Assembly: GCA_963605745.1 (NCBI GenBank)
Contig: CAVCWT010000012.1
Span: 608-64,607, forward strand
Source: Lachnospiraceae bacterium
GTDB taxonomy: Bacteria > Bacillota > Clostridia > Lachnospirales > Lachnospiraceae
Direction of reading: 5' to 3'
DNA: 64,000 nucleotides
This document shows positions 25,205 through 60,387 of the stretch, piece by piece. The notes below the pieces were generated by a model. That model saw nothing but the letters and a program-made list of their open reading frames with translations. It was not told where the DNA came from and did no database searches. Each line of letters begins with the position of its first letter. Position 1 is the first letter of the stretch. The translations under genes and the position numbers were made by a program.

Positions 25205-25957
25205 TTAAAAGCCGAATTCATCCCGGAGCTCTGCAACCGGTATTTTCCTGGCCAGCAGCAATTCTGCCTTACGCTTTGCAGACAGACTCCCGCCGCCCAG
25301 CATGGAATGATTGTCGCCGGTGTTTCGCACATAAACCGTCATGGGAAACGGAGCATCCGTAAGCGGACGGCCGATTCCTGCCATTTTCCCGGGCACCTCC
25401 CGGTGCGGACTGCGAATCAGCCACTTTTCTGAAAAGCTGTCGTCATACAGATCCTTTGGCATCGTATCCGGAAGATCCTCCAGGGCATAACGCACCGCCG
25501 TGCAGGATCCGCAGATGGAATAGGGCCTGTATATTTTTCTGCAAAAATCCTCTCCCTCGTTGTAGAGGTAGCCTGTGCGTGCCGTAAAGCCGTTTAATTC
25601 CGGATGTTCCTTTGCAAAGCCTGCAATCCGGTTGGAGATCAGATCATCGGAATCCACCAGCATGGTATATCCGCCGCCTGCGGCGCGAATCCTCTGGGCG
25701 ATCATGGAGATTTTCCATCCCTTGTCCAGCATCATCTCCCTACGATCTCTCGGAACCGGGGAATCCGATCTTAGGAACTCTACTCTCTCGTCATAGGTGT
25801 TCGTAAGCTCCGGGATTTCATGGCAGGCAACGAAAATCCGAAATTCCGGACAGCTCTGACGATAAACCGACTGCAGGGTTCTGTTAAAAACCTTCGTCAC
25901 CTTTTCCCAGTTTTCCGAAGCCTCTTTGGAGCGAAGCGGAATTCCAAAATAAATCAT
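25205..25957 (-). CDS. GT-A fold glycosyltransferase-like protein
   Basis: FGIPLRS N-terminal strand, MLVDSDD (DXD), and EPS context. Confidence 0.7.
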   Translation of the reverse strand: MIYFGIPLRSKEASENWEKVTKVFNRTLQSVYRQSCPEFRIFVACHEIPELTNTYDERVEFLRSDSPVPRDRREMMLDKGWKISMIAQRIRAAGGGYTMLVDSDDLISNRIAGFAKEHPELNGFTARTGYLYNEGEDFCRKIYRPYSICGSCTAVRYALEDLPDTMPKDLYDDSFSEKWLIRSPHREVPGKMAGIGRPLTDAPFPMTVYVRNTGDNHSMLGGGSLSAKRKAELLLARKIPVAELRDEFGF

Positions 25958-27513
25958 AGAGCATTCTCCTGTTTTCTGATCTTATTCCAAAACGCCTTGA
26001 TTTCTGCAGGACGGAACATCACGGCCAAAATCACCACGCCGCACCCTGCCGCCGACACAGCTCCCTTCAGAATCAACTGGATCCAGCTGTCTGCAGAAGG
26101 CAGAACCATCTCCAGCAAAACCGCAGCAGCAGTTCCTGCAGCGCACGAAGCAACATGCCGGCCAATGACAGGATAAAAGGTTCCCATTCCAACCCCCATG
26201 CAATACGATGCATACAGCGGGGTATCAATAAAATGAACACAGTTGATCACCAGTGTGGTAATCACCACAGCATAGGCGCCGTAGTGCGTCTGCACCAAAA
26301 GGACATACATTGCCAGCACATTCGCCACTCCCATGGCGATGGTAATGAGGCAGGGAATTTTTAATTTTTTGGTCAGCGTAAAGACGTAATACAAGGGATT
26401 CACAACGCCGACCGCAACATCGCTGAACAGAACGATCATCAAGAGCCGGTAAATGAACTCCGTATTCTGTTCCGGTAGCCAGAGAACAAGGAAATTCCTC
26501 CCGCACACCCAGAACACACAGATGATCAGACTGCAGAAAAGACCCGTCGTTTTCATGGTCAACCGGAACAGCTTGACCTGCCCCTCTGTGTCCTTTTGCG
26601 CATACAGAACCAGCTGCCGCGGCTGAAAGCTCTCGCTGATTCTCTTGACCAGTGCATAGCAGAACATGCCCAGATTTTTGGCAATGGAGATTTCTCCCAG
26701 CACCACAGCATTCAGCATCAGATCCGTGATGAGAAGATCCAGTCCGCTGTTCAGGACATCCCCCAGATTGTTCAGGGCATTCCAGATTCCCGAAACAAAC
26801 AGCTCATACACCGCCGAAAGTGAGCACTGTTTCCTCGAAAAATGCAGCTCCGGCGTAAGCTCCCCGGTAAGGGAAATGTATCTCACCAGCAAAAAAGACG
26901 ACGCGCACAGATATGCAATTCCCACATACCATACATGGGGCGGCAGTATGAGGCACAGTCCCAAAAGCACAACAGCCTGCAGGACATAGCTGACACTCTT
27001 GGTTCGTTCTGCCAGATCCAGGCGATTGGCAATAAAGGCTGCTGTGTTGAATGCAGTCCTTAGAAGCGTCAGAAGGTAGTTGACAAGGACCAGCGCAAAA
27101 AGGATTTTCACATCCCCGCACAGATTCTCCGGAATGACAATGAAGGCCTCCATGTGCCGGATGACAAAGGCTCCCGGCACGAGAATGCAGACAGCCATCA
27201 TCAAATCGGCGGCAATGACCGAGGAATAGAAACGGTTCGCCCGTTCCAGATCCTTACGGTGATAGGCCACCGAAATAAACCGGCCGGCAAACGTATTCAG
27301 CGCTGCCGCTGCAATATCAATGTATCCGGTAAAGGACGTTGCCAGGGAAACGAATCCGTACGCCTCCACGCCGATGTTGTTCGTGACATAGGGTGTGATC
27401 AGAAACTGCATGAAATAATTGATCAGGACCGCCGAAATCGACCAGATCATATTCATGGCAATCATCTGTTCATTCGTCCGCTTTTCTTTTTTTTCGGCCT
27501 TTCCTCCCATCAT
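25954..27513 (-). CDS. wzx: polysaccharide flippase Wzx (MOP superfamily)
   Basis: 12-14 TM, ITPYVTNNIGVEAYG motif; ATGA overlaps with both neighbours. Confidence 0.85.
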   Translation of the reverse strand: MMGGKAEKKEKRTNEQMIAMNMIWSISAVLINYFMQFLITPYVTNNIGVEAYGFVSLATSFTGYIDIAAAALNTFAGRFISVAYHRKDLERANRFYSSVIAADLMMAVCILVPGAFVIRHMEAFIVIPENLCGDVKILFALVLVNYLLTLLRTAFNTAAFIANRLDLAERTKSVSYVLQAVVLLGLCLILPPHVWYVGIAYLCASSFLLVRYISLTGELTPELHFSRKQCSLSAVYELFVSGIWNALNNLGDVLNSGLDLLITDLMLNAVVLGEISIAKNLGMFCYALVKRISESFQPRQLVLYAQKDTEGQVKLFRLTMKTTGLFCSLIICVFWVCGRNFLVLWLPEQNTEFIYRLLMIVLFSDVAVGVVNPLYYVFTLTKKLKIPCLITIAMGVANVLAMYVLLVQTHYGAYAVVITTLVINCVHFIDTPLYASYCMGVGMGTFYPVIGRHVASCAAGTAAAVLLEMVLPSADSWIQLILKGAVSAAGCGVVILAVMFRPAEIKAFWNKIRKQENAL

Positions 27514-28217
27514 GCCTTTTCTCCGGGATTTGAATTTACTGAATTCATTTTCAAAAACCATTCTGCGCACAAAAATCCTGCTGCCGTGCCCAACGTATTG
27601 AACAGAATATCATTGATATCACACTGCCCCAGCTGCAAAACGAGCTGGATCAGTTCAATAACCGTAGAAACCATCATTCCGGTCATGGTGCCCTGGAGCG
27701 GAGTCAGTTTTTTCCTGCCGCTAAGGAGCACCAGCGATCCTCCGAAGGGGAGAAATAAGACCGCATTCAAAAGTCCATGCCGCCACCAGTATGCAGAGCT
27801 CCCGTTTCTGCCAAAGATCAACAGTTCCATACAAACCGAGGTATCCTGGCTGCCGTCTCGCATCAAAAGTGTTGCGCCGAGAATCAACAGGAGGCTCAGC
27901 AGCAGGCATGTCAGACCGCGTTTTTGTAGACTTTTCCTGTTTTCTGTCAGAAAGTGTGCGCCGCCTGCCGCTGCCAGAAAGACCGTCGCAATCAGGCACA
28001 GCCACAGCATGCACAGCGAGCTTCTCATCATAAACGACATGCAGCCGAACGCAGTTCCTGCAAACAAAAACAACACGGCAACCACAACACCGGAGGCCCT
28101 TGCGCTTTTTTTGTCATAGGCCCTTCCCTTCAGCATCTGCAGGGTCCATATATAATCCATGATCAGCAGCAGAATGCTAAGAACCACTCTTGCCGATTCC
28201 TGCCTTGCTAAACCCAT
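27510..28217 (-). CDS. VanZ-family membrane protein
   Basis: LLNAVLFLPFG...IELIQL...CDINDILFNTLG motif. Confidence 0.85.
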   Translation of the reverse strand: MGLARQESARVVLSILLLIMDYIWTLQMLKGRAYDKKSARASGVVVAVLFLFAGTAFGCMSFMMRSSLCMLWLCLIATVFLAAAGGAHFLTENRKSLQKRGLTCLLLSLLLILGATLLMRDGSQDTSVCMELLIFGRNGSSAYWWRHGLLNAVLFLPFGGSLVLLSGRKKLTPLQGTMTGMMVSTVIELIQLVLQLGQCDINDILFNTLGTAAGFLCAEWFLKMNSVNSNPGEKA

Positions 28218-28418: not shown

Positions 28419-29687
28419 CTACGTATCTGCAACACTCCCCTTATCCCTGGCACAGGCCGCTGCAATCGCAAGGAAAAAGAACAGGGTAAAATAATTATTC
28501 GTACCAAACGCCCGCTCTGTTAAACCGTGAAGCGCCGCATGCATCAGAAAAGTGCTGACAAACAGATACTGCTGCTCCGGCACCTCGTGGATTCTCTTCG
28601 TTGCATCCAGAATCATCACAAAAAACGCCGCAATTCCGAACAACCCGACATTCAGCCAGAACTCGAGCAGAACGTTGTGTGCTCCCGTTGTCATAGTTGA
28701 TCCCCAGGAGTTTGCCTCAAAGCCCGCATGATATTCCGCTACAGCCCTCGCATCGCGCCAGAACATCTCATATCCGTATCCGGTAAACGTCCGCGACTGT
28801 GTCATCATTTCGATGATCCGGTTCCACAAAACAGTCCTGCCGGTCAGCGTGGCATCCTTTCCAAGTGCAGTCAGAAGCGGCGTAAACAGCGGCAGAATGG
28901 TCAATGCCATGAACAAAAAAACGATGCTGACAACAATATAGTCCAGCCCGATATGGAGTCTGTGCCGCTCATCCCGCCGCGGTTCGATCCAGAACAGATA
29001 CACCTGCGGAATCAGGACAAAGATCACAGGGCCTGTTGCATGACACATCAAAAGGAGAATCGCCTGCAGAACGAACAGAAGGATGAAGCGCTGCGAAACC
29101 GCCCGTTTCTCCTGCATGCGCCATCTAAGCAGAATCGACTGGAGCAGAATTCCGCACGAAAACTCACTGGCCGCAGAATTTTTAGCATTTAAAAGGCCGA
29201 TGAAATCATGGGCACTTTGCTCACTGGAGAAGGACATTCCCGGAGCAATGATCATCAGAAAGATCGAGGCTATGACGATCCCTGCCTGCGCATACAGAAT
29301 CAGCTCCAATGTCCTTTGGATTCCAAAATAATCCAAAAGCCACAAGGCAAAAAACACCGTGGCTGAAAACCGCAGACAGGTAATCAGCTGTTTCTGCGGA
29401 TACCGGGTCACAGCCATAGACTCTGCAAAAAACACCGCAACCAGCAAATAGATGGCCCGGTAACAGGACCGGAGGTTGATGATCCGAATCTCCCGAAAGC
29501 TCTCGCCGCTGGAAAAGAGCATGATCAGAAGCTCCAGCACAAAGGCTCCGTACTCCAGCAATGTGCACAGCTTTTCTCCCAGAAAAGCCTCATAATTTCC
29601 GGGAAATCCAAGACTGAGAAATAATATGAAAACTGTAATGATCTCGTACAGCGGATGGACTCTACTTTTTTCAGATATCAAAATCAT
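28419..29687 (-). CDS. polysaccharide polymerase Wzy / O-antigen-ligase-family membrane protein
   Basis: More than 10 TM; LGKDATLTGRTVLW, GYGY and AHNVLLE motifs. Start moved to MILIS at 29687. Confidence 0.85.
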   Translation of the reverse strand: MILISEKSRVHPLYEIITVFILFLSLGFPGNYEAFLGEKLCTLLEYGAFVLELLIMLFSSGESFREIRIINLRSCYRAIYLLVAVFFAESMAVTRYPQKQLITCLRFSATVFFALWLLDYFGIQRTLELILYAQAGIVIASIFLMIIAPGMSFSSEQSAHDFIGLLNAKNSAASEFSCGILLQSILLRWRMQEKRAVSQRFILLFVLQAILLLMCHATGPVIFVLIPQVYLFWIEPRRDERHRLHIGLDYIVVSIVFLFMALTILPLFTPLLTALGKDATLTGRTVLWNRIIEMMTQSRTFTGYGYEMFWRDARAVAEYHAGFEANSWGSTMTTGAHNVLLEFWLNVGLFGIAAFFVMILDATKRIHEVPEQQYLFVSTFLMHAALHGLTERAFGTNNYFTLFFFLAIAAACARDKGSVADT

Positions 29688-31422
29688 CCTCTCCCTGATT
29701 ACTTCCCAGGTCCGGATAGTCAAAATCCGGTTCTTCCTCCTGTTCTGTGCCAGAAGGAAAGCCTTTTTGTCCTTCTCTTTCCCCAGCAGAAGAAAGGCCT
29801 TCTTGTCCTGCTCTTTCCCCGTCAGAAGCATGCCCCTCTTCTTCCTTCCAGCTGCTGCTTACTCCCATATGCAGCAGTGCGTAAGCGGCATCCTGATCCG
29901 AAAAATCCTCACTGACGTTTCCTTCCGGCTCCTGATCCAGCGCAATCAAAGGATTCTGTCTCCCTGTTGCATCCTGCTCCGGCTTACTCTCATCATTCAT
30001 ATAGACCGAAGCCTCCGAAGAACGTTCCGTTCTGTTTTCTGCAGGCATCCTGCTCCCCCGCTCCCGTCCGGTTCCACCCGGTACGCGGTTTACCACACAT
30101 CCCAGAATGCGAATGCCGGATTTTTCCAGTTTTTCCAGGGTTTCCCGGATCTCCGGAAGAATGGCCTGATCGTATCCAATCACAAAAAGGACCGAATCCG
30201 CCACCTGGTTCAGAGACAATGCATCCGAAATGCTGCCAACCGGCGGTGCATCCAGAATGACATATTCATAATTCTCCCCCAGCTTTTTCAAAAAATCAGC
30301 CAAGGTCCCATCCATGGCAACCACATTGTGCTCGAGAATCATCGGCAGAAAGTCCAGATACCCCGTCAGTGTCACGATTGCTTCCTTTGCACTGACCTCT
30401 CCCTTATAAAGAGCATTCAGTGAGTGGCTGTAATCCACCTGCTTGAGAAACAGACCGCCAAGGCTGGGACTTCTGGTATCCAGATCCACCAGGAGGACCT
30501 TACGCTCCATATCCGAAAACTGCACGGCCAGATTGGCCGCTGCAGACGTCCTTCCTTCCTGATTCTGTGTTGAAGTTACATAAAAGCAATGCTGCCCCTC
30601 TTTGGTTCCCAAAAGATTTCGAATAATGTAGGCACAGGAAGCATAGTTCTGCTCTATAGGAGAAATCCCCCCATCGGTGCGATCCAAAAGGAGCCCTCCC
30701 CGGCGAAAATATTCCGAATCTTCCGGGATCGTTCCGATCATGTCCATTTCCAATACGCTCTCAACGTCCTTCGTATTGATGAGCGTCGGGCGCAGCAGAA
30801 GGTCCAGAACAGCAATTCCGATTCCGGCAAAAAGCCCCAGTATTCCCAGCATGAACCACATTCCCGAAGCCACTGCTCCGCCGACGGAGCTTGCTGCTGT
30901 CGGCTCATCGATCACTTCCACGGACCCCATCTGCAGCGTCTTCGGAAGGAGCTTACCTGCCGCATCCAGAATCGCATTCATCAGCGTGATTCCTTCTGTA
31001 TCACTGTTCCATTCCAGCTCCAGTTCCAGAATCTGGGTTTCGTTGTACTGTTCTACCTGCAGCTTTCCTCTTAATTCCTTTGCGGTAATATCCGTCCGCC
31101 CCGTCTGCTGCAGGGCCTGCTCCAGCACCCTGTCACTTTTCAGAATATACGACACCGCATCCGGCATATCCGCTGCCAGATAATAATCATCCTTGGTCGG
31201 TGTATGATTGTCCGACGTATAATTGCCATCGGCAACCTTCGATGCCACCGCAACCGAGCAGCTGATCTGATAGCCAAAGAGATCTCCCTGCACATAAGAA
31301 ACTCCCAGCATGGCCGCCCCCATGGCAAATCCCGCCAGGGTCAATAGAACAATCAGCCGCCACCGCTTCCACACGGCATAAAGAAGATCACTGATTCGTA
31401 TTTGGATTCCGTTGCTGTTCAT
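29671..31422 (-). CDS. fused chain-length determinant/BY-kinase-like protein (Wzc-like, CpsC+CpsD fusion), degenerate kinase
   Basis: Two TMs around an extracellular loop. The P-loop domain has QEGRTS in place of EGKS/T, plus LVDLD and ILDAPP. There is no C-terminal Tyr cluster. Confidence 0.82.
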   Translation of the reverse strand: MNSNGIQIRISDLLYAVWKRWRLIVLLTLAGFAMGAAMLGVSYVQGDLFGYQISCSVAVASKVADGNYTSDNHTPTKDDYYLAADMPDAVSYILKSDRVLEQALQQTGRTDITAKELRGKLQVEQYNETQILELELEWNSDTEGITLMNAILDAAGKLLPKTLQMGSVEVIDEPTAASSVGGAVASGMWFMLGILGLFAGIGIAVLDLLLRPTLINTKDVESVLEMDMIGTIPEDSEYFRRGGLLLDRTDGGISPIEQNYASCAYIIRNLLGTKEGQHCFYVTSTQNQEGRTSAAANLAVQFSDMERKVLLVDLDTRSPSLGGLFLKQVDYSHSLNALYKGEVSAKEAIVTLTGYLDFLPMILEHNVVAMDGTLADFLKKLGENYEYVILDAPPVGSISDALSLNQVADSVLFVIGYDQAILPEIRETLEKLEKSGIRILGCVVNRVPGGTGRERGSRMPAENRTERSSEASVYMNDESKPEQDATGRQNPLIALDQEPEGNVSEDFSDQDAAYALLHMGVSSSWKEEEGHASDGERAGQEGLSSAGEREGQKGFPSGTEQEEEPDFDYPDLGSNQGEDDFDI

Positions 31423-31427
31423 ATGCG

Positions 31428-33113
31428 TTATTCCTTATGCCCGTCTGTTTCAGACTCTGTCTGCGTATCCTTCCCTGCCTTTTTGCTGCCTTTTCGTTTG
31501 CCGGCTTTTCGAATCAGTGCTGCCAGCAGGGCAACCATTCCTACTGCAGCAGCTGCTCCTCCTGCAAATACCAGAATGCCCGTCTTTGTGAAAAGCTCCC
31601 GATTAAAAGTCTGGAGCTCTGCGGTATCCGAAACCGTAATGGTTTCTGCCGCATCTTCCTGTCCGTCTTCATAAATCGAATACGTCCCCTCTTCCAAATC
31701 TGTGAATACTCTGGGCGAACCCGAGGTTGTCCAGGAAGCGACAATGGTTCCATCGCTCTTTTTTAATATGAGCTGCTTTCCTGCGATCTGCCGGTGAAGG
31801 ATGCTGTCCAGGACCCCGATCTGTACTCGCAGCATACGATTCGTCAGCTTCAGATCAGCAGTAGCCTTTCCCTCGATTCTTCCGTCTTCAGATACGGTTA
31901 CTGTGTGCTGCGCAGCGTCCGCCCGGTAGTTTTCCGGTGCAAAAATCTGCCGGATCTCATACGAGGCTCCTTTTTCCAGATCGGTCAGAACAATTCTTCC
32001 GGTCTGATCCGTTGCAGCCTGCCGCACATCGCCGGACTCCGGATTCGTTATTTCGAATTCTGCTCCCTCGATGGCCTGCCCGGTCAGCTCATCCGCAAGA
32101 GAGAGCTCCACCTTGGTTTTGTCTGCCTTGGCTTCTACAACTGCAGATTCCGATACCGTTTCAGTTTCGGTCTTTTGGGAAACCGTGGCACTTAGAGTCT
32201 CCGTGATGGATGCATAGTACTCCGGAACCGTATTTTGTTTCAGCGTATAGCTGCCCAGGTACAGCTCCTTGCTCTCTCCGTAGCCATCTTCATCCAGCGT
32301 GATGGTATCCACCGTTTGTCCCTTTGTATAACGCACGGTTCCATCCGTTGTTGTGATATCCTGTGCTGCGATGACATCAAAGGTCGCACCGCTAACGGCC
32401 GTTCCTTCCTCTTTGTCTGTCATCTGAACCCGGATGATATTGCGGGAAGGATACAGCGGCACCTGCACAACAAGAGGTTCCGGCCAGTCATACAGCCGGT
32501 CCACAGTGAACTCCACACTGCCTGCACTGTCGTACCCTTCCGGAACAGTCAGCTCCAGCAGGCTGTACTGCCCTTCAAAAATCTTCTCCGGAAGATAAAA
32601 AACACCTTCCTTCGTGGTTTCAAATTGCTGATATGAGGTCTTAACCGGGTAATACGTGTTCAGGGTTTCCAGCTCTGCGTCCTGCCCGTACAGTTCAAAG
32701 GACACCCCCTCCTTTCGGATGATCTTCAGGGTTTCAGCATCCACCAATTCCACGTAGACAGCCGATTTGATTCCTTCGTCCGTTCCGGGCTGAATTCCAA
32801 TGCCATTCCCACTTCCGCCTCCGTAAGAGGCAGGCTCATTGCTCCCGTTTCCGGAACCATCATCATAGGAATCCCCTCTCTGATCCCAGGTATTCCCCTC
32901 TGCGGATTCCTCCGTAGTCCCGTATCCGTCATAATCCTCTGTGTCCGCCATCGTCCCGTTGGTCAAGTCACCCTCGATGGATTCCGGCGTGTACATCAGA
33001 TACAACAGCAGCAGAATAATGATCAGGATCAGAATTAAAACCAGGCCCGTCATCAGATCAAAGGAGGGCTGCCAGAAATTAAGTTCTCTTCTGTCGTTTT
33101 TTCGCTTCTTCAT
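31428..33113 (-). CDS. MotB/ZorB-like N-terminal TM fused to four SpaA/CnaB pilin-like domains, with a C-terminal TM anchor
   Basis: NFWQPSFDLMTGLVLILILII. E-box-like motifs YSLLELTVPEGY, YTLKQNTVPEYY, YEIRQIFAPENY; GATF/GAEF and TDQTG strands. Ends FTKTG + hydrophobic helix + basic tail. Confidence 0.8.
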   Translation of the reverse strand: MKKRKNDRRELNFWQPSFDLMTGLVLILILIIILLLLYLMYTPESIEGDLTNGTMADTEDYDGYGTTEESAEGNTWDQRGDSYDDGSGNGSNEPASYGGGSGNGIGIQPGTDEGIKSAVYVELVDAETLKIIRKEGVSFELYGQDAELETLNTYYPVKTSYQQFETTKEGVFYLPEKIFEGQYSLLELTVPEGYDSAGSVEFTVDRLYDWPEPLVVQVPLYPSRNIIRVQMTDKEEGTAVSGATFDVIAAQDITTTDGTVRYTKGQTVDTITLDEDGYGESKELYLGSYTLKQNTVPEYYASITETLSATVSQKTETETVSESAVVEAKADKTKVELSLADELTGQAIEGAEFEITNPESGDVRQAATDQTGRIVLTDLEKGASYEIRQIFAPENYRADAAQHTVTVSEDGRIEGKATADLKLTNRMLRVQIGVLDSILHRQIAGKQLILKKSDGTIVASWTTSGSPRVFTDLEEGTYSIYEDGQEDAAETITVSDTAELQTFNRELFTKTGILVFAGGAAAAVGMVALLAALIRKAGKRKGSKKAGKDTQTESETDGHKE

Positions 33114-34684
33114 CCCTTCTGACCTTCACGAATGATATTCTCATACTCCTTCAGAGAAATGGGTTTTGAAAAATAATATCCCTGCCCGGCAGTACACCCA
33201 CTGCGCTTTAACTGCCCCAGTTGGTCCATGTTCTCAATTCCCTCTGCTGATACCTGAAAATTCAGCGTCCTTGCCTTTTCCAGTATGGCCGGAATCGACA
33301 GTCCATTCGGATCCTGATTCACATAACGAAGATCCAGCTTCAGGCTATCTGCTGCAATATGTCCGATGGAATCCAGTGCCACAAAATCACCGGAAAAACC
33401 ATCCACAACCACCTTGAATCCGCTCTGCATCAGCCTTGATTCCACATCAAATACTGCGCCATGTGTCTGCAGGTAGGCATTCTCTGCCAGCTCGATCACA
33501 AGATACTGCGGAGGAATCCGATATTTGGCCAGCATCTCGGAAAAGAATTCCGCAACATCCATGGCCAGAAGATCCGTTTTGGTAACATTAACAGAAATCG
33601 GCAGCGGCCGAATTCCCGCATTGACCCAGTCGCGTATTTTCCGGCACACCTGTTCCCAGATATACTGGTCCAGCTTGGTAATGTAGCCGTTGCTCTCCAG
33701 AACAGGCAGAAAGACCGCCGGCGAGATCATTCCCAATGTCGGATGCTGCCAGCGAACGAGTGCCTCTGCTCCTATGACTTTGCCGGTATTCAGATCATAC
33801 TGAGGCTGCACATAGAACACAAAGTTTCCGTTCTTCATTCCTTCCAGAATCTGCGGCATCAGAATCTGTTCGTTCATGGCAGACGGCGCCGCCCCCTGCA
33901 GTCCTGCAGACGCATTCGTCACAGAATACCCGGATGCTTTCGGCAGTCTCTTCAACAGCTCAATAACCTTGGCTGTTTCCTTGCGGCTGCGGTAACGATT
34001 CTGCTCCTCCACCGTCGGAATAACATTCTTATGAAACAGCTCCGTAAAAACACCGAGCTCCCGGCACATCATATTCCATGCAATCTGATAAATCAGATTG
34101 AACGCAATGGACAGGATTACACCCGCAATAGAGGTGTAAAATGCCGTTTCAATTCCGGAGAGCAGCGTCCGAACGCTGGAAAGGACCAGATCCACCGAGC
34201 CGAATCCCAGATTTCCAAGGCCCATGATCAGTCCCACGAAGGTTCCGAGAATGCCAAGGCCTGTCAAGGTCCCTGGAATCTGGCTGATCACCCCCTGCCA
34301 GCTCTCAAGGATCAGAACATCTTCATTGATGTATTCCTCAACATCACTCAAGATCTGCCCGGCGGACTGCTGCATGCGCACCTTCTCTCTGTACGCAAGA
34401 AAAAACCGGTTCAAACCCTTCTGGCGGAACAGATTCTCGTTTTCGGAAAGTGCGGACCATGCAGAATCTGCGTTCACCTCAATGGCATGCCGCACGTTTT
34501 TTTCGCCGCATCGGAAGCCCTTAAAATAGGACATCACCGGCAGGATGCCGCAAAATGTACCGGCAACAACAAAGAGCAGCATGACTCCCACACAGCAAAG
34601 AGACAGAAAATCCGGAGAATAAGCACACAAAAATCCTCCTGCCGCCAGCATCAGTATTGTTGCGAGATAGATCAGATTCTTCAC
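33110..34684 (-). CDS. MotA/TolQ/ExbB (ZorA-like) channel domain fused to an EAL domain
   Basis: IPGTLTGLGILGTFVGL...LLSGIETAFYTSIAG channel motifs; C-terminal QPQY, GAEALVRW, ISVN, LKLD, AEGIE, QGYYFSKP. GTG start with AAGGAG SD; ATGA overlap with the MotB-like gene. Confidence 0.85.
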   Translation of the reverse strand: MKNLIYLATILMLAAGGFLCAYSPDFLSLCCVGVMLLFVVAGTFCGILPVMSYFKGFRCGEKNVRHAIEVNADSAWSALSENENLFRQKGLNRFFLAYREKVRMQQSAGQILSDVEEYINEDVLILESWQGVISQIPGTLTGLGILGTFVGLIMGLGNLGFGSVDLVLSSVRTLLSGIETAFYTSIAGVILSIAFNLIYQIAWNMMCRELGVFTELFHKNVIPTVEEQNRYRSRKETAKVIELLKRLPKASGYSVTNASAGLQGAAPSAMNEQILMPQILEGMKNGNFVFYVQPQYDLNTGKVIGAEALVRWQHPTLGMISPAVFLPVLESNGYITKLDQYIWEQVCRKIRDWVNAGIRPLPISVNVTKTDLLAMDVAEFFSEMLAKYRIPPQYLVIELAENAYLQTHGAVFDVESRLMQSGFKVVVDGFSGDFVALDSIGHIAADSLKLDLRYVNQDPNGLSIPAILEKARTLNFQVSAEGIENMDQLGQLKRSGCTAGQGYYFSKPISLKEYENIIREGQKG

Positions 34685-34715
34685 AGCTTTGTGTTCTCCT
34701 TACCGTTTCCATTTG

Positions 34716-35121
34716 CTGTTTAGCCTTGGCCACATGAGGGTTTCAATCATGAATCCGTCCGCGGGGCGGCCGATTCATGTTGAAACCCACATAACACATA
34801 TCAAAAATGTAACTGTTTAGCACCCACATCTCTCATTTGCGTTGCAAATGAGAGATGTGGGTGGCCAGAGGCCCTTCGGGCCTTGGCCACATGAGGGTTT
34901 CAATCATGAATCCGTCCGCGGGGCGGCCGATTCATGTTGAAACCCACATAACACATATCAAAAATGTAACTGTTTAGCACCCACATCTCTCATTTGCGTT
35001 GCAAATGAGAGATGTGGGTGGCCAGAGGCCCTTCGGGCCTTGGCCACATGAGGGTTTCAATCATGAATCCGTCCGCGGGGCGGCCGATTCATGTTGAAAC
35101 CCACATGTGCTAACCAGATAC
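34716..35121 (+). repeat. tandem array (period 157 bp, ~2.5 identical units) of the three-hairpin TIR element
   Basis: gccttggccacatgaggg recurs at 34723, 34880 and 35037. Left TIR gtaactgtttagcac at 34809 and 34966; right TIR gtgctaaccagatac at 35107-35121. Confidence 0.92.
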
Positions 35122-39861: not shown

Positions 39862-40422
39862 TTAGAACTTGATCATGAAGGTTCCCATATCCTCAACAGA
39901 GATGTTAACCTTGCCGTTTACTACAGTAACCTGAGTTGTGGTAACGGAACCATCCTGGTGGATCTGGAATACAGTAGCGGTCTGGCCGTCATACTTGTTG
40001 CCAACGCCTACGGAATACTTGAAGGTGCCAAAGCCGTTCCATACAGCCTTGCCAGCCTTGTACATGCGGAGCTTGTAAGGGCCAAAGGTCTTGCCGGTAG
40101 CAGAGGAAGCTGCTACATACTCCTCAAGAGCAACGGTAGCTGCATCCTTAGCGTCTGCCTTGTAGCTGGTAGCTACAGCCTTGCTGTCGGTTACAGAGCT
40201 GTAGTCAGACTGGAAACGAACGCCCTCAACGGCCTGATAGCCGCCGCTGGTTCTCGGGATAAAAGCGTTTACTGCTGCTGCAGGAGCTGCAGACTCAGTA
40301 GTGGTGGATGCCTTAACCTCGGTCTTGGAGGTGCTGGGGCTGTTTGCTGCAAATACAGAAGTTCCGAATACCATCGTGGCAGCCAGAACGCCTGCAACTG
40401 CTGCGGTCAATTTTTTCTTCAT
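39862..40422 (-). CDS. secreted protein of unknown function
   Basis: Sec signal MKKK...SVFA, Ser/Thr/Ala linker, beta-rich C-domain. GGGAG SD; codon bias resembles that of tig. Confidence 0.8.
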   Translation of the reverse strand: MKKKLTAAVAGVLAATMVFGTSVFAANSPSTSKTEVKASTTTESAAPAAAVNAFIPRTSGGYQAVEGVRFQSDYSSVTDSKAVATSYKADAKDAATVALEEYVAASSATGKTFGPYKLRMYKAGKAVWNGFGTFKYSVGVGNKYDGQTATVFQIHQDGSVTTTQVTVVNGKVNISVEDMGTFMIKF

Positions 40423-40614: not shown

Positions 40615-41496
40615 TTATTGATACTCCACGCCGGTCGGAATGGCCTGCACAATAAAGTCCTGCGTGTCAGACATGGATCCCTGAATTGTCAGAAGACACC
40701 AGATGTTCACGGCATCCTGCTGCAGATCGGTATTGAGAACTGCCTGCATATTGCGCTGGCTGTAAATGCTGTCAATATAGGCCGCATACTCGTCTGCATC
40801 ATAGAAATTCGTTCCCGTAAGGATGTCAGTGTGATCCGCCGTATAGGCGGCGATCAGCTGGTATTCCATCACCGATCCATCTGTGGTTGTGAGATACAGG
40901 TACGGATTCTGCTCACTGTACTGGGCATCGCCGTACTCGGTCAGCTTCTCAAGAGGGCCGCCCGCAGCTGCACTGCCGTGGATCACAGTATTGGGATCCG
41001 TCAGACCTTCATCATTCCCACTGTCAAGGTAGGCTTTCTGATCTGCAGCGGCATCATTCGAATAAACCGGAACAGACAAGAGCTCTGCGCCGCTCTCTGC
41101 ATCCGCTGCCTGCAGGAGGTACAGCTCTCCATCATCCCATGATGCAGCGGCGTTTCCGTCAAGAAGGCCGGGGCCCTTAAAGGCCGACTCCGTGCCGCTC
41201 TCTCTGCCAAGGATGGTCTCACCATCGTCGAGCTCTGCAGGGATCGTACTCTCCTCTTCCACGGTGGTTTCTTCGCTCGATGACTCCACATTCACCTCTG
41301 CTGCGTTGTCATCGGTGCCGGTGCTCTCCCAGCCGTTTTCTGCAGCAGGGGTTTTTGTTGTCTCCTCTGTGGTCCCCTGTGCCGAGCACCCGGAAAGGGA
41401 GATCGTACAGACGGCAAGGAAAAGTGCCGCTGCTGTCGTTATTTTGCCCGGTGTTGGAACCCGAGATTCCCTGTTCGTTCTCTTAGTCTCTATCAT
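40615..41496 (-). CDS. class B sortase-fold lipoprotein lacking catalytic residues
   Basis: Lipobox LSGC. YLDSGN...TDPNTVIHG, NPYLYLTT, YQLIAAY and LLTI align by eye to SrtB, but YGH, TLSTC and the catalytic Arg are replaced. Confidence 0.7.
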   Translation of the reverse strand: MIETKRTNRESRVPTPGKITTAAALFLAVCTISLSGCSAQGTTEETTKTPAAENGWESTGTDDNAAEVNVESSSEETTVEEESTIPAELDDGETILGRESGTESAFKGPGLLDGNAAASWDDGELYLLQAADAESGAELLSVPVYSNDAAADQKAYLDSGNDEGLTDPNTVIHGSAAAGGPLEKLTEYGDAQYSEQNPYLYLTTTDGSVMEYQLIAAYTADHTDILTGTNFYDADEYAAYIDSIYSQRNMQAVLNTDLQQDAVNIWCLLTIQGSMSDTQDFIVQAIPTGVEYQ

Positions 41497-42241
41497 CGTC
41501 ACCGCCGTAGTTGCCGTAATACTTGCCGTAGTACTTACCATAATATTTGCCGTAGTATTTGCCGTAGTAGCCTTTGCCGCCGTCCATATCGACTTTATTC
41601 AGAACGCACCCCAGAACCCGGCAGCCGGCGCGAAGGAGCTGATCCAGAACGCTCTGTGCGAACCGATAACTGATATTACCGCTGGAGATGACCAGCATGA
41701 TGCCGTCGCATTTCTTGCCGATGATGGCAGAGTCGATCACGCTCCCAAGGGGCGGGGTGTCAACGATGACATAGTCATAGATCTTTCTCGCATCCGCAAG
41801 AAGCTGGGTGAACGTATCGCTGTTAAGGAGCTCCGAGGGGGTCGGCGTGGTGGGACCTGCCAGCATGACATCAAATCCTGCCTGGTTGGTCTTGCAGACA
41901 GCCTCTTCCATGGAGCACTGGCCTACCAGATAGTTGGCAAGGCCATAGCGTACCCTGCCGGAGCGAAGGTGCTCTCTCATAACAGACTTACGAAGATCGG
42001 CATCGATCATCAGAACCTTGTTCTGGTTCTCGGCAAAGGATCTTGCCAGTTCAAAAGAGACCTCAGATTTACCCTCGTTGGGAGTGCAGCTGGTGACAGC
42101 AATGACATGCACATCCTTGCCGCTGAACTCGATATTGGAGCGGAGGGTCTTGTATGCCTCGCGGGTACGGAAGGCGAGGTTATCATCCTGCAGTACAACG
42201 CTCTGTGTCATTGTCTGATTCGCGTTTTTGGGCATTTGCAT
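41483..42241 (-). CDS. cpsD: protein-tyrosine kinase CpsD/EpsB (BY-kinase)
   Basis: EAYKTLRSNI, PNEGKS, IDADLRK, VDTPP and a C-terminal (YYGK)n cluster. Confidence 0.93.
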   Translation of the reverse strand: MQMPKNANQTMTQSVVLQDDNLAFRTREAYKTLRSNIEFSGKDVHVIAVTSCTPNEGKSEVSFELARSFAENQNKVLMIDADLRKSVMREHLRSGRVRYGLANYLVGQCSMEEAVCKTNQAGFDVMLAGPTTPTPSELLNSDTFTQLLADARKIYDYVIVDTPPLGSVIDSAIIGKKCDGIMLVISSGNISYRFAQSVLDQLLRAGCRVLGCVLNKVDMDGGKGYYGKYYGKYYGKYYGKYYGNYGGDDDRD

Positions 42242-42258
42242 AATCTATCTCCTCCTTC

Positions 42259-43671
42259 CTAGATCATTTCATCATCGGACAGAAAATCTTCCATGCTGAG
42301 GATGTCTCCGAGCTCCTGTGTCATGGAAAGCTCATCCTCATCTGCCGGCTGCGGCGCAGAATTTTTCTGTGTGGGCTGCGGCCTTACCGGCGACTGCTGC
42401 GGTGCCTTGCCGGCGACTGCTGCAGCACTGCCATTCTCAGCAGCCCTCTTTTCGGAATTCCTGCGCTCCGGGCGCCCAGCCTCCCTTGCAGGTCCTTCAT
42501 TTCGAACCGGCCGGCGAGTCGTATTATTCATATTGTTCGGACCTTGGTGTTCATTCCCAGGTGCCGCTGCATTTCTGTGTTCCGGATAATCCGAGCGTTC
42601 CGGGTGCTCTGCGCTGCCGGCATTTCGCGATCCGTTTCTGCGCTTATCTGCCTCGCTCGCTTTGATCTCCTGAACAACTCTCTGTCTGGTCGGCGGTTCC
42701 TTGGTCTGACGGTGGTGCACCGGTTCACTCTTTTTATTCTTTTTGTTCTTTTTCCGTGCCTTTTTGTCCTCTGCCGCGGCAGCACCGATGTTTTCATCGA
42801 GAGGGATCATAGCCAGCACAGAGAGTCCCAGATACCGCTCAACATCCTCGCTGGTCTTGACCGTGTCATCCAGGATGTAGCGCAGAACAACCAGGACGCT
42901 CACAAGGAGTGCACCCAAAAACGCAGCAATAATCGCCCATTTGCCGCAGCTGGGAGCTGACTTCACGGTCGGGAGATTGGCCTCCTCATAGGTGTTCACA
43001 GCATCGATCTGCATGGTGCTGATGATGAGCTCGGCAGCCTCGGTGCGGATGCTGTTCGCAAGGGTCTGTGCCAAGGCCGGATCATGATCGGTCACGGTGA
43101 TGGATACAATACGGGTATCGGTAGGCGTGTCGACGGAGACCTTATCAAGGAAAGTTTTGTAATCGTAGAGCTCATTCAGGCCGTTGTCAGAGATCACCTT
43201 TTCAATGACGGTACGCGAAGTAATGAGCTCGGCGTAGTCCTTGGTCAGCTGAGAGCCGACCTGCAGGTCTGTGTAGGTGCTCTGCCCACTGCTGGTGCTG
43301 CTCTTTTTATCCAGTACATAAATCTTGGTTGTGGACTGGAATTCCTCCGGCAGAACAAATTTGCTAAAGCTATAGGCCGCTGCGCCAAAGGCGATGGCAA
43401 CGACAAGGATGAGCCAGAGCCAGTGCACGATAACGCCGAATACCTCGCCTAAATCAATGGTAATCTCATCATCGTTCTCCTGGCTGAGCATGCCGGTGCG
43501 GACCCCAATGCGGTTTGCCGCAGCGCCCTGCGCGTTCATTGTGTCCATACCGGCATAAGGACTGCCGTAGATCGCGCTGCCCTTGCCATCATTCATCCCT
43601 GCGTAAGCACCGGCACTTTGTGCGGCGCCTGCATACATATTCTCGTTTCTGTTCTCTGTGTTCACATTCAT
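42259..43671 (-). CDS. cpsC: capsular polysaccharide chain-length regulator CpsC/Wzz with long disordered extensions
   Basis: EITIDL, STTKIYV, LTKDYAELITSR, DTRIVSI and DDTVKTSEDVERYLGL motifs. Start uncertain. Confidence 0.88.
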   Translation of the reverse strand: MNVNTENRNENMYAGAAQSAGAYAGMNDGKGSAIYGSPYAGMDTMNAQGAAANRIGVRTGMLSQENDDEITIDLGEVFGVIVHWLWLILVVAIAFGAAAYSFSKFVLPEEFQSTTKIYVLDKKSSTSSGQSTYTDLQVGSQLTKDYAELITSRTVIEKVISDNGLNELYDYKTFLDKVSVDTPTDTRIVSITVTDHDPALAQTLANSIRTEAAELIISTMQIDAVNTYEEANLPTVKSAPSCGKWAIIAAFLGALLVSVLVVLRYILDDTVKTSEDVERYLGLSVLAMIPLDENIGAAAAEDKKARKKNKKNKKSEPVHHRQTKEPPTRQRVVQEIKASEADKRRNGSRNAGSAEHPERSDYPEHRNAAAPGNEHQGPNNMNNTTRRPVRNEGPAREAGRPERRNSEKRAAENGSAAAVAGKAPQQSPVRPQPTQKNSAPQPADEDELSMTQELGDILSMEDFLSDDEMI

Positions 43672-43876
43672 AGGGTACTGGTTCCTGTGCGGACGTAATC
43701 TGCCGTTGCTCACACATCTTTTGCAGGATAGACCTGTCGATGTCAAAGGAGCATGGCACAATCCGTCTCGTTTGCAATGATCAGATGATATGTTATTAAA
43801 TGCACAATCCTAAATGATTATGATTGTTTCTCTGTGGTTTTGCAAGGATTTTGTCGGATATTATCACAAAATCCTC

Positions 43877-44614
43877 CTACACTTCTTCATCCCGGATGAC
43901 GCGTAAGGTATTCTCACGCATGATCCTTCGAATATAGTCGGGATCACAGTGTTTCTCGAGGTAGTTCCAGCACTCCAGCATTCTGGGCGTACGGCCCTGA
44001 TCTTTGTGAGCATCGGTCCCGATAAAGGTAACCAGCTGCTCCTCCAGAATGTGATGCACAAACCGCGGAATGGGTGCCATAAACCTTGGCAGAACATCGT
44101 CTGCATTTACCTGCAGGTAAATCTGATTGCGATAGAGATTCTCCACCAGCTGGTAGTCCTTGCGAAGGCAATCATACCGTTCGCAGTGTGCCAGGATGAC
44201 GCGATAGCCTTCATAAGAGAGGGTCCGAAGCCCCTCCTGAATGTAGGAAGCCTGCTCCCATGGCTTGAATTCCACCAGAACATAGGAGGAACCTGCCATC
44301 GTCTGAATCCTGCCCTCCTCGAGATCCTCCAAAACGCCGCTGTCATACATGATCTCATTGCCGGGATAAAGGTCGATGGGGATATCATTCTCATACATCC
44401 GGTCATACATGGCATCGATGCGGCGTTCCTGTCCTTTCGGGGAAACGTTGTGATGTCCCCTTTTATAATGCGGAGTCAGGATCATGGTCTCAATATGATG
44501 CTCCGCTGCGATGGCCAGCATGTTCTGCGTCATCTCCATACTCTCGGAGCCGTCGTCGACCTTTGGCATGATGTGTATGTGCATGTCTGCGAATCCGTAA
44601 TCCGGTTGTTTCAT
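43877..44614 (-). CDS. cpsB: PHP-family protein-tyrosine phosphatase CpsB
   Basis: DMHIHIMPKVDDG, TPH, GNE, AHCERY and TDAH motifs. Confidence 0.93.
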   Translation of the reverse strand: MKQPDYGFADMHIHIMPKVDDGSESMEMTQNMLAIAAEHHIETMILTPHYKRGHHNVSPKGQERRIDAMYDRMYENDIPIDLYPGNEIMYDSGVLEDLEEGRIQTMAGSSYVLVEFKPWEQASYIQEGLRTLSYEGYRVILAHCERYDCLRKDYQLVENLYRNQIYLQVNADDVLPRFMAPIPRFVHHILEEQLVTFIGTDAHKDQGRTPRMLECWNYLEKHCDPDYIRRIMRENTLRVIRDEEV

Positions 44615-44632
44615 AGTATCCTCTGTCGTTTT

Positions 44633-45913
44633 TTACTCTTCTGCTGTACCAGAGAGCTCCTCTTGTGATACCTCGGTATAGAACACCTCCAGCATCAGTT
44701 CGTACAATGCGTCCTCATCGTAGTCGAATTCTTCGTAGCCCTGATCACCGGTCGTTGTAGTGCCTTCGAGAGAATAGATGGTATCAAGGTTCAGAGAATA
44801 GCTGCCCATCTGACCGGCCAGATAAGTCACCTCGGACACATCCACATCCGTCACCATGTAGCGGGAGATGGTCTGATAGAGATTCACAACGGAGGTCGGA
44901 TCCTTGCGGATGGACTCCATCATCTTGCTCATTAGGGCCTTGAGGTAGACCTTTTGTTTTTCCAGGCGGAAGGATGCGGTATCAAAGGTTTTGATATCAC
45001 GGTAGTGCACGTAGTTGAAGGCATCCTTCCCCATCAGCGTCTCGTCCTCGCCGTACTGAATCTTGCCATCTTCAAAGGTCATCCGCGGCACGGTGACACC
45101 GCCGACAGCATCATTGATTGTTGGAATTGCCCCCATGTTGATGGCCACATATCCGGACAGCGGCAGGGAATAGAACAGGTTGGAGACGGCCTTTTCCTCA
45201 CGCTCACAGGACTCCTCCAGACCGTTGCCGTAGCCGTGGGCGAGACAGATCTGACCAGTACCTGTGTAGACGAACTCGTCGTTCTCGTCATAGACATCAA
45301 TCTCGGTCATGGTATTGCGGTTGATGGCAACAACGCTGATCTTCTCGGTCGCCGGATTCATGACAAGGAGGAACAAACTGTCCGCCTGTCCGCCGTTCAC
45401 GCCGCCGGATTTTTCTGAAACGTAATTCATGTCATCGATGCCCATAAAGAGGAAGGTCAGGATCTGGTCGTTATATTCGTAGACCTTGTCGTTATAACGA
45501 ACCCAGCCGCTCTTCCAGACCTCGCCAGGCTCTGCCTGTTCGCTCGTCTCCTCCCCGGCTGCTACCAGCGTAGGGGCCGCCAAAGCCGCCTTTTGATAAA
45601 GGGATCGTTTGCCCATGGCATCCAGAACGCGCCACCCGGCGAATGCGCTGCATCCAAGAAGGCCCAATACGACCACCACGACCAGCAGCACTCGCTTCCA
45701 ACCATGGCGGCGACGATGGTGGTGATGGCGGTATTCTGACCGGCCAAAGGTCCTCCTTTTGTGAGCACGCCCCTTGCTGTCATAATAAAGCGGACCGTCC
45801 TCGTCTGCCGCGGCCTTTGCATGGTGTCCCCGGTGATGATGCACACTCCCCTCGAAATCAATGTCTAGTATGTCGTTATTCTGGCTATGATCATTCATAT
45901 CATCTGTACTCAT
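44633..45913 (-). CDS. LCP (LytR-CpsA-Psr) family glycopolymer transferase
   Basis: Single TM; FLFMGID, GQADS, INRN, DAVGGVTV and RLEKQK motifs. Confidence 0.9.
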   Translation of the reverse strand: MSTDDMNDHSQNNDILDIDFEGSVHHHRGHHAKAAADEDGPLYYDSKGRAHKRRTFGRSEYRHHHHRRRHGWKRVLLVVVVVLGLLGCSAFAGWRVLDAMGKRSLYQKAALAAPTLVAAGEETSEQAEPGEVWKSGWVRYNDKVYEYNDQILTFLFMGIDDMNYVSEKSGGVNGGQADSLFLLVMNPATEKISVVAINRNTMTEIDVYDENDEFVYTGTGQICLAHGYGNGLEESCEREEKAVSNLFYSLPLSGYVAINMGAIPTINDAVGGVTVPRMTFEDGKIQYGEDETLMGKDAFNYVHYRDIKTFDTASFRLEKQKVYLKALMSKMMESIRKDPTSVVNLYQTISRYMVTDVDVSEVTYLAGQMGSYSLNLDTIYSLEGTTTTGDQGYEEFDYDEDALYELMLEVFYTEVSQEELSGTAEE

Positions 45914-56978: not shown

Positions 56979-56984
56979 TTGTCC

Positions 56985-58433: not shown

Positions 58434-58601
58434 GCCATAACCCCCTGGTTTTGGTAAAACATTGACCTCCCTATTATACTCCAGCAACCAAGGTGCAAAC
58501 AACAAGAAAAGGAGATAATGCGCTGCATTATCTCCCATCGTGTTACATTGTAAATTCAGTTGTGGCATTCTGGATTATTTTACCATACTCATGTGAACCA
58601 C

Positions 58602-60158: not shown

Positions 60159-60387
60159 ACTACAGGAGCACCTCCTTATATAATTTGCGTTGCAGCCGCA
60201 TTCCTGCGACGGATCCTCATCGAAGACAGATGAGAGCTCCAGGCATATCGCCGAATTTGGCAAAATACAACAAATCAATACTACCTGTTTTGTACGCCAG
60301 TGTCAAGAATGCATAAGTCTAATTCCATCAAAATCCATCAAAAGTGCCCGGCATTGACCACGCATGTGTCAGTATTTGTAAACTTGC

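Follow-up and report, generated by a model that had tools for sequence, protein, structure and literature searches.

Flagella, transport across the outer membrane, gliding with type IX secretion, and the Zorya defence systems all run on ion-driven stator units, and to our knowledge all described units come from diderm cells except for the stators of Gram-positive flagella. Cyclic di-GMP (c-di-GMP) acts on flagellar stator units, for which YcgR, MotI, PlzD and FlgX are the c-di-GMP brakes, through separate PilZ proteins, and we know of no other route by which this second messenger reaches a stator. For Zorya, a published account reports that D26 of ZorB engages T147 and S184 of ZorA, that the ZorB D26N substitution abolishes defence and that a ZorA T147A/S184A double mutant is non-functional (PMC11946911). 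Here we analyse a 64,000-nt stretch of DNA from a Lachnospiraceae bacterium (GCA_963605745.1, contig CAVCWT010000012.1, positions 608 to 64,607; hereafter the window), in which two overlapping minus-strand genes, A and B, encode a ZorAB-like stator pair whose A subunit ends in an EAL domain and whose B subunit carries a pilin-like stalk, immediately ahead of a third gene, C, and of a Wzx/Wzy polysaccharide cassette.

Results

A stator-type pair with an EAL domain and a pilin-like stalk

The ATG of B and the TGA of A share the letters ATGA at 33110-33113. The first-pass annotation of this DNA had described channel helices followed by an EAL domain in one product, and a transmembrane helix, linker, four SpaA/CnaB-like domains and second transmembrane helix in the other, and each of these elements is found where it was placed, on the minus strand (Table 1). 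The membrane module of A is built of four hydrophobic helices (residues 2-21, 26-55, 136-157 and 164-200), with a helical domain in the cytoplasm at 56-135 and a further helix past the membrane at 225-245; Pfam matches MotA_ExbB (PF01618) at residues 90-202 with 36.6 bits against a cut-off of 22.9 (39.7 bits in a scan of the host's own genome) and EAL (PF00563) at residues 280-508 with 182.3 bits, while SpaA matches B at 107 bits across three stretches. AlphaFold models were calculated from alignments of 34 homologues for A and 36 for B, with a mean predicted local distance difference test (pLDDT) score of 80.5 and 80.0, respectively. The former features helices at 2-21, 26-70, 136-157, 164-220 and 225-245, a linker (246-272) with pLDDT below 50, and the EAL domain; the latter features a helix at 15-40, a disordered acidic segment (42-112), a beta-rich region (113-508) with pLDDT mostly above 90, and a helix at 510-541 followed by a basic tail.

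The top Foldseek matches of B are Gram-positive pilins and adhesins (B. anthracis TIE, 9.7e-19; BcpA, 8.9e-12), and no GldM or PorM chain is found among the matches listed for B, to which a likeness could still exist. Neither Pfam nor NCBIfam finds an OmpA or MotB_plug match in B, and neither the window protein nor any of 17 relatives has an LPXTG-like motif ahead of the C-terminal helix. From its predicted topology, B is held by the second transmembrane helix without a sortase signal, the stalk is placed outside the cell because both ends of the protein are positively charged, and the EAL domain of A must, by the same kind of reasoning, be cytoplasmic.

Two further identities were considered for B and rejected. 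A C-terminus acting as a sortase or other sorting signal, linking the stalk covalently to the wall, is at odds with the lack of a conserved motif before the helix, and a standard sortase-anchored pilin or MSCRAMM identity is at odds with an N-terminus that is a stator-type helix as well as with the missing LPXTG signal.

Table 1. Positions in the window of the A-B pair, of the domains of both proteins and of the adjoining polysaccharide genes.
Feature	Positions	Strand	Description and basis
Gene A	33110-34684	minus	524 aa; start codon GTG, preceded by AAGGAG; channel module of the ZorA/MotA type joined to an EAL domain
A residues 1-245	33950-34684	minus	ZorA-like module; Pfam, PADLOC, VIA-align, PF28082
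A residues 246-272	33869-33949	minus	Low-confidence, variable linker from channel module to EAL domain; pLDDT <50, gapped variable alignment columns
A residues 273-524	33113-33868	minus	EAL domain; Pfam, Foldseek, VIA-align, residue alignment
Gene B	31428-33113	minus	561 aa; 4-nt overlap with the stop of A
B residues 1-41	32991-33113	minus	Basic cytoplasmic N-terminus and ZorB/MotB-type transmembrane helix with D19; alignment, model
B residues 42-112	32778-32990	minus	Acidic Gly/Ser/Asp-rich linker, length-variable, predicted disordered; model
B residues 113-508	31590-32777	minus	Four tandem SpaA/CnaB-like beta-sandwich domains, predicted extracellular stalk; Pfam, Foldseek, AlphaFold
B residues 509-561	31431-31589	minus	Second transmembrane helix and basic cytoplasmic tail, without LPXTG-type motif; model
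Gene C	29671-31422	minus	583 aa, start 5 nt past B; Wzz-like membrane domain fused to a bacterial tyrosine kinase (BY-kinase)-like P-loop ATPase
Wzy_C	28419-29831	minus	O-antigen-ligase-like polymerase; Pfam
VanZ	27510-28217	minus	VanZ-like membrane protein, recurrent cassette member; Pfam
Wzx	25954-27570	minus	Wzx-type flippase (Polysacc_synt); Pfam

The membrane module is of the ZorAB type

The channel module of A resembles ZorA specifically, not the MotA of flagella: Pfam, PADLOC, VIA-align and alignments to the PDB agree on a stator pair, and the Mot/Zorya-type assignment made at first pass can be narrowed to this branch. The best non-EAL match of A in NCBIfam is ZorA_2 (56.3 bits, under the cut-off of 100), 18 ZorA models of PADLOC match at up to 58.3 bits, and a PDB sequence search with the N-terminal 275 residues returns ZorAB entries only (six sequences, including 8vvn_C at 2e-11, 8qyh_A at 2.5e-7 and 8vvi_F at 1.3e-5). 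Among the matches listed by Foldseek for the whole A model only EAL structures appear, and the channel module surfaced only in a wide VIA-align run against 48,161 chains, where the EAL structures are followed by ZorA 8qyd_A (Z 15.1, rmsd 3.6, 215 residues aligned), by the further ZorA entries 8qyh, 8qyk, 8vvn_C (Z 12.7) and 8vvi_F (Z 11.5), and then by ExbB (10.7) and TolQ (9.5). Furthermore, PF28082 ('ZorA-like_t1', Pfam 38.1, precomputed annotation) is present on all of the best 120 listed A homologues, which means that the ZorA-like module is already catalogued at the level of the domain.

The N-terminus of B (NFWQPSFDLMTGL) aligns to the solved ZorB chains with D19 opposite ZorB D26. When its first 50 residues are searched against 177,635 PDB sequences, the only near-significant matches are 8qyd_F (E 0.022) and 8vvn_B (E 0.054), and the PADLOC ZorB model matches weakly at residues 4-50 (E 6e-4). 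The nearest EAL-less pairs that possess an OmpA domain (L030-L034) are ordinary ZorAB-like pairs, of which L030 and L031 reach as much as 217 bits as full ZorB in PADLOC, and descent of A-B from ZorAB fits with such relatives. A complex prediction with four copies of A(1-225) and two of B(1-50), a stoichiometry below 5:2, gave a score of 0.22 (mark 0.32).

The first-pass annotation had also remarked on the lack of flagellar and zorCDE genes. PADLOC identifies no ZorC/D/E or other defence family among the 47 further open reading frames (ORFs) of the window, and in the host assembly (2.86 Mb in 125 contigs, with a completeness of 98.4%) a Pfam scan finds no FliG_C or PilZ, A as the single match to MotA_ExbB, nine matches to GGDEF and three to EAL, two of them in GGDEF-EAL frames. 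A flagellar stator identity for A-B was rejected, with an NCBIfam MotA score of 17.2 bits against a cut-off of 340 and no FliG_C match in the genome.

Conservation of the pair and of its ion-path residues

More than 100 independent assemblies carry the A-B pair, and the fusions are not an assembly artefact; for 31300-34800 itself no sequencing run, of RNA or otherwise, was listed. The best 120 homologues of A are 52-86% identical to it (the window's own protein excepted) and all carry the same three Pfam families, which likewise bears out that both fusions are real. In a search with residues 1-275 of A against 1.84 billion cluster representatives, 52 clusters match at E <= 1e-30, and a Pfam scan covered 47 of the 150 cluster matches listed: 16 carry EAL (488-536 aa, plus one 393-aa form), eight are short (253-365 aa) with MotA_ExbB only, one 496-aa protein likewise has MotA_ExbB only, and the remaining 22 are longer and without an EAL match, as expected of ZorA-like relatives, 19 of them matching MotA_ExbB.

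Gene order was followed in 20 reference loci from GTDB with a full-length A homologue, drawn from metagenome-assembled genomes of Christensenellales, Oscillospirales and Lachnospiraceae, and in 80 metagenome loci with A-type genes, 69 of which extend at least 300 nt past A and were scored for linkage. A B-type gene directly follows A in all 20 reference loci and in 67 of the 69 metagenome loci, 64 times with the identical 4-nt overlap, and the two exceptions are short contigs with truncated A genes. In seven metagenome loci (L063, L072, L085, L047, L095, L112 and L116), A, B or C is split across two adjacent frames by frameshifts or assembly errors. The system is patchy among species. Its cultured carriers in public records are Brotaphodocola catenula, Clostridium sp. 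AM32-2 and Lachnoclostridium sp. Marseille-P6806, about ten of the 80 metagenome loci have 'human-gut-metagenome' in the contig name, and two clusters of B-type proteins hold 1,947 and 1,503 member sequences. Public annotation is generic, with A named 'EAL domain-containing protein' and B 'MSCRAMM family protein' or 'SpaA isopeptide-forming pilin-related protein'.

The residues that line the Zorya ion path recur in the pair. A aligns to E. coli ZorA without gaps at a numbering of +1 (P137/P136, I145/I144, T148/T147 and S185/S184), and among 34 aligned A homologues P137 and T148 are present in all and S185 in 33. The Asp of the B helix, which the first pass noted in a MotB/ZorB-type transmembrane segment, has its equivalent in 120 of the 120 homologues listed, in 18 of 20 reference loci and in 65 of 67 metagenome loci, the search pattern for the Asp having failed to match in the other two. 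In the window pair the ion-pathway triad predicted by this alignment (T148 and S185 of A, D19 of B) is intact. Two reference loci have another residue in place of the Asp (Ala in L012, Gly in L015), and these are also the only two of 21 loci with an altered T184/S185 in A (to AS and AA), with both genes intact, and such a joint loss, albeit in a small sample, is expected from a working A-B ion path. The stator units encoded by these two pairs may no longer conduct ions.

An EAL domain with a degenerate loop, and relatives without it

By fold, the EAL domain of A is close to that of MorA (Foldseek, 6.3e-18) and to RocR (VIA-align, Z 28.3), and the EAL domains of LapD and FimX match the A model at Z 24-26. 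The catalytic residues E307 (of the EAL motif), R311, N366, E398, E401, D428, K449, E481, E484 and Q501 are present. Across the family, however, the DDFGTGYSS of active enzymes is changed to DGFxGD[YF], with DGFSGDFVA at the aligned position in A. Among the 34 A homologues, the second Asp of DDFG is Gly in 33 and Ser in one; at the first Glu position of ExxE, 22 have E, eight have D and four have S or N, and at the second, 29 have E and five have K or Q; and the EAL-domain Lys is K in 30 and N or M in 4. EAL catalysis is described as relying on the EAL motif and on the DDFG(T/A)GYSS loop, which coordinates two metals (PMC13492106), and functional EAL domains with deviating signatures are designated class II and non-functional ones class III (PMC12900916). 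A lacks the full class I signature, which includes DDFG(T/A)GYSS. Rao et al. reportedly found in 2009 that a degenerate loop 6 predicts EAL inactivity.

At least 18 clusters hold EAL-less forms of A, about 255 aa long, which align over the whole channel module and end where the linker begins. A metagenome scan with a single such protein (P0257) found nothing; repeated with an alignment (A3), it gave a set of mainly EAL-fused loci in which L065 is the one clear case without EAL, and the same alignment applied to a phylum-level sample of 401 genomes matched nine of them, all in frames of at least 451 aa (ZorA-like or fused), with no EAL-less form. In L065, a B-type gene lies 210 nt downstream of the A gene and encodes the Asp, SpaA domains and the start of the C-terminal hydrophobic helix, inside which the contig ends; upstream are a response regulator and an ORF with a weak Wzy-like score of 25.6 bits, short of the cut-off of 26.6. 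Because EAL-less A genes still pair with B, the A-B core appears to work without the EAL domain, which would then be a regulatory link rather than the sole output. Of the c-di-GMP coupling proposed at first pass, the EAL domain itself stands, and the role as an enzymatic output is modified by the degenerate DDFG/loop-6 region and by the EAL-less A genes: as judged from its residues, the domain may be a c-di-GMP input or receptor rather than an enzymatic output.

The polysaccharide cassette

The pair had been placed beside Wzc-like and Wzy machinery at first pass, and this neighbourhood recurs: in each of the 17 reference and 58 metagenome loci scored, the gene next to B is of the Wzc-like C type, and a Pfam survey of 73 downstream ORFs from 17 reference loci, 16 of which extend past C, finds VanZ in 13 of the 16, Wzy_C in 12 and Wzx-type flippases in nine, with glycosyltransferases beyond. 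In the window the order is A, B, C, Wzy_C, VanZ, Wzx, an unmatched ORF, YdjC, GH5, GT2 and GT1; the true start of Wzy_C is probably further in than given in Table 1, since the longest ORF overlaps the end of C. Upstream of A are GT4, an AsnB-like gene, UDP-glucose dehydrogenase and a canonical CpsD/CpsC/CpsB/LCP set. The genes 5' of A vary between loci without conservation, which places A at the head of the cassette.

C is not a standard tyrosine kinase, as far as its residues tell. At most one Tyr is found in the last 60 residues in 17 of 18 proteins of the C type, against 11 in the CpsD of the window, the Walker A motif reads GRT, with Lys replaced by Arg, in the window and five other loci (6 of 18) and GK(T/S) in 12 of 18, and NCBIfam TIGR01007 scores 74.6 against a cut-off of 108. 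The window hence holds two co-polymerase sets, the canonical LCP-CpsB-CpsC-CpsD at 41483-45913, with a YGK-repeat tyrosine cluster in CpsD, and the divergent fused C at 29671-31422.

In three relatives the gene directly upstream of the A homologue is suggestive: it encodes a GGDEF protein in L011, an EAL-PAS-GGDEF protein in L012 and, in L018 (L018:8300-9604), a priming sugar transferase (Bac_transf) with an N-terminal HD/HD_5 fusion, which could be a second nucleotide-signalling link to the cassette. The gap between GT4 and A in the window is filled at 34723-35109 by a perfect, hairpin-rich tandem array of 2.45 copies of 157 nt, the first 63 nt of which are a palindrome that recurs at some 50 further sites of the genome (59 matches altogether, with 83-100% identity); the array belongs to a genome-wide, REP/BIME-like family of intergenic repeats and is outside the A-B system. 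Three ORFs of the polysaccharide locus (25205-25957, 39862-40422 and 40615-41541) have no Pfam match at E <= 0.01, and at 55305-60278 lie three adjacent minus-strand ORFs of 557, 527 and 558 aa, the last with weak PADLOC matches of the HD type (Cas10, 9e-10; Cas3c, 2.6e-7). A promoter scan gave nothing above shuffled expectation, and an Rfam scan of the whole window detected no c-di-GMP riboswitch or other RNA at gathering score.

Discussion

These data point to a model, with a probability that we put at about one half, where A-B is a Zorya-derived, ZorAB-type ion-driven membrane unit that is dedicated to the Wzx/Wzy exopolysaccharide (EPS) cassette, is linked to c-di-GMP and signals from inside to outside. 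Five copies of A would form a channel ring around two B helices, as in ZorA5B2, and ions would pass via D19 of B and T148/S185 of A, the flow turning or shifting A relative to B; the topology of A, with short loops as its only parts outside, allows for rotation. The tail of ZorA would have been exchanged for a flexibly tethered EAL domain that ties the unit to c-di-GMP, and the wall-binding domain of ZorB for a rigid stalk of four pilin-like domains, preceded by a disordered linker and followed by a second membrane anchor, an exchange that would place B beside the Wzc-like C and the Wzy polymerase. There, the stalk and second helix of B could grip the polysaccharide machinery or its product, in substitution for the wall-binding domain, so that the five tethered EAL domains, by binding c-di-GMP and perhaps slowly hydrolysing it, would set the activity of the unit, and its movement would act via B on polysaccharide polymerisation or export. 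The sequence data establish the domain anatomy, the conserved ion-path residues, the linkage of the genes and the lack of flagellar or Zorya partners; we infer the complex, its stoichiometry, the ion flow, the binding of c-di-GMP, which way the signal runs and any contact of B with C or Wzy. We prefer the inside-out direction since the catalytic loop is degenerate, some forms have no EAL domain and the genome shows no match to a PilZ receptor.

The opposite direction is possible, if doubtful. As an outside-in sensor, the B stalk would report load on the wall, matrix or capsule, or damage to the envelope, releasing ion flow and rotation of A as in Zorya and switching the EAL domains between inactive and active (dimeric) states, with a fall or rise in local c-di-GMP that would feed back on polysaccharide synthesis. 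In Zorya, ZorAB is proposed to sense a disturbed envelope and, by rotating, to pass the signal on to the cytoplasmic end of ZorA (PMC11946911), and the EAL domain of A occupies exactly the place of the ZorA tail; moreover, most of its catalytic residues are conserved, its Pfam score is high (182 bits) and its best structural matches include the active phosphodiesterases RocR (Z 28.3) and PdeA. On the other side, the metal-binding DDFG/loop-6 region is degenerate throughout the family, the ExxE Glu or the Lys is missing as well from some members, and EAL-less A genes keep B, so that the unit must have a function that is independent of EAL.

Several observations weigh against the inside-out, cassette-dedicated model itself. 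E307, R311, N366, E484 and Q501 are found in 34 of 34 A homologues and D428 in 33, and with most EAL catalytic residues conserved real phosphodiesterase activity, and hence an outside-in sensor, is quite possible. The contact of B with C or Wzy is suggested by gene order, B lacks any wall-binding domain and has both ends in the membrane, and the generation of torque calls for a B subunit that is held still. The gene context of the EAL-less forms comes from one inspected locus (L065). Finally, the surveyed loci belong to related organisms and many are near-identical gut strains, so that the counts overstate their independence, and the pair is rare in reference genomes, with an N-terminal match at E <= 1e-20 in 4 of 399 genomes of a class sample, the window's own included.

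A Zorya-like anti-phage system, with an EAL effector and surface polysaccharide genes in place of ZorC/D/E, is improbable. In its favour, ZorA and ZorB are nearest to the two membrane modules, and the closest pairs with an OmpA domain and no EAL (L030, L031) reach full ZorB scores; yet PADLOC assigns none of the 47 other ORFs of the window to ZorC/D/E or another defence family, the ZorA score of A stays under its NCBIfam cut-off, tail and peptidoglycan-binding domain are both lacking, and the conserved neighbours (C, VanZ, Wzy, Wzx and glycosyltransferases) are biosynthetic rather than those of a defence island. Improbable, too, is the reading suggested by the generic public names, in which A is an ordinary membrane-anchored phosphodiesterase with a MotA-like anchor, B an independent, co-transcribed surface adhesin and the two form no joint machine, given that the translational coupling of A-B is conserved, that B has a stator-type Asp helix in place of a signal peptide and no LPXTG, and that the ion-filter residues of A are invariant and lost together with the Asp of B.

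The first-pass annotation had known of no described system of this architecture, and we too found no description of a MotA/ZorA-EAL fusion or of a stator-exopolysaccharide operon in the literature; the main text of a 2025 survey of stator diversity (PMC12505986) makes no mention of EAL, c-di-GMP, fusion or Clostridia. Tentatively, A-B might represent a further functional class of 5:2 ion-driven rotary motors next to the flagellar, Ton/Tol, gliding/T9SS and Zorya ones, gated by c-di-GMP, found in monoderm gut bacteria and doing mechanical work on Wzy-dependent polysaccharide assembly, with EAL domains on the rotating ring and an axle held by an Ig-like stalk and a second anchor. If the mechanical link to polysaccharide assembly is true, it is potentially a new function for ion-driven units of the 5:2 type. 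A stator-type pair that has its own c-di-GMP domain and heads a capsule/EPS cassette in non-flagellated gut Clostridia would join two large fields, and would offer a testable handle on the post-translational control of polysaccharide assembly in monoderm bacteria.

Comparison with known systems

ZorAB (E. coli type I, 8qyd; Shewanella type I, 8vvn; Sulfuricurvum type II, 8vvi) comes closest, in sequence and in fold, to the A channel module and to the helix at the N-terminus of B. The equivalents of ZorA P136, I144, T147 and S184 and of ZorB D26 are all kept, and in both systems the signalling end sits past the last transmembrane helix of the A subunit. That end is a long cytoplasmic coiled-coil tail in ZorA, whereas in A the helices run to residue 245 and are followed by the linker and the EAL domain, and A carries one extra N-terminal helix; ZorB has an OmpA-like peptidoglycan-binding domain where B has an Ig-like stalk and a second transmembrane helix. 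Unlike Zorya, the pair has no zorC/D/E and its constant neighbours are polysaccharide genes, and A-B hence fails three defining features of Zorya, namely the tail, the wall-binding domain and zorCDE.

Flagellar MotAB and PomAB belong to the same superfamily and use the same Asp-based ion coupling as A-B, but in A the c-di-GMP domain is fused to the subunit and is EAL rather than PilZ, in a host without a FliG or PilZ match. On the signalling side, LapD is described as a degenerate-EAL membrane protein for inside-out c-di-GMP signalling (PMC3032553). What A shares with LapD and FimX is a cytoplasmic EAL-fold domain on a membrane protein, which would read c-di-GMP and alter events outside the membrane. 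LapD and FimX have lost most catalytic residues, whereas the A family retains most of them and differs mainly at DDFG/loop-6, and the membrane part of A is a channel module, not the HAMP and periplasmic sensor of LapD.

With Wzc and CpsCD co-polymerases, C has in common the Wzz-like membrane domain and the P-loop ATPase, and B would have a similar topology, with two helices and a large ectodomain; C differs in having no tyrosine cluster and in a Walker A Lys that is sometimes Arg. GldLM and PorLM, which drive gliding and type IX secretion, are motors of the 5:2 type whose B-like subunit has one N-terminal transmembrane helix and a long Ig-like stalk that transmits movement away from the membrane. 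They occur in the diderm Bacteroidota, use other ion-coupling residues and have neither a second transmembrane helix nor a nucleotide-signalling domain, and no sequence relation to A-B was seen here. A further likeness is to Agl-Nfs and Agl-Glt of Myxococcus, where a TolQR/MotAB-type proton motor is coupled to the handling of a Wzy-dependent surface polysaccharide (the spore coat). This machinery belongs to diderm Myxococcota, works with many envelope-spanning partners and has no fused c-di-GMP domain and no Ig stalk on its B subunit.

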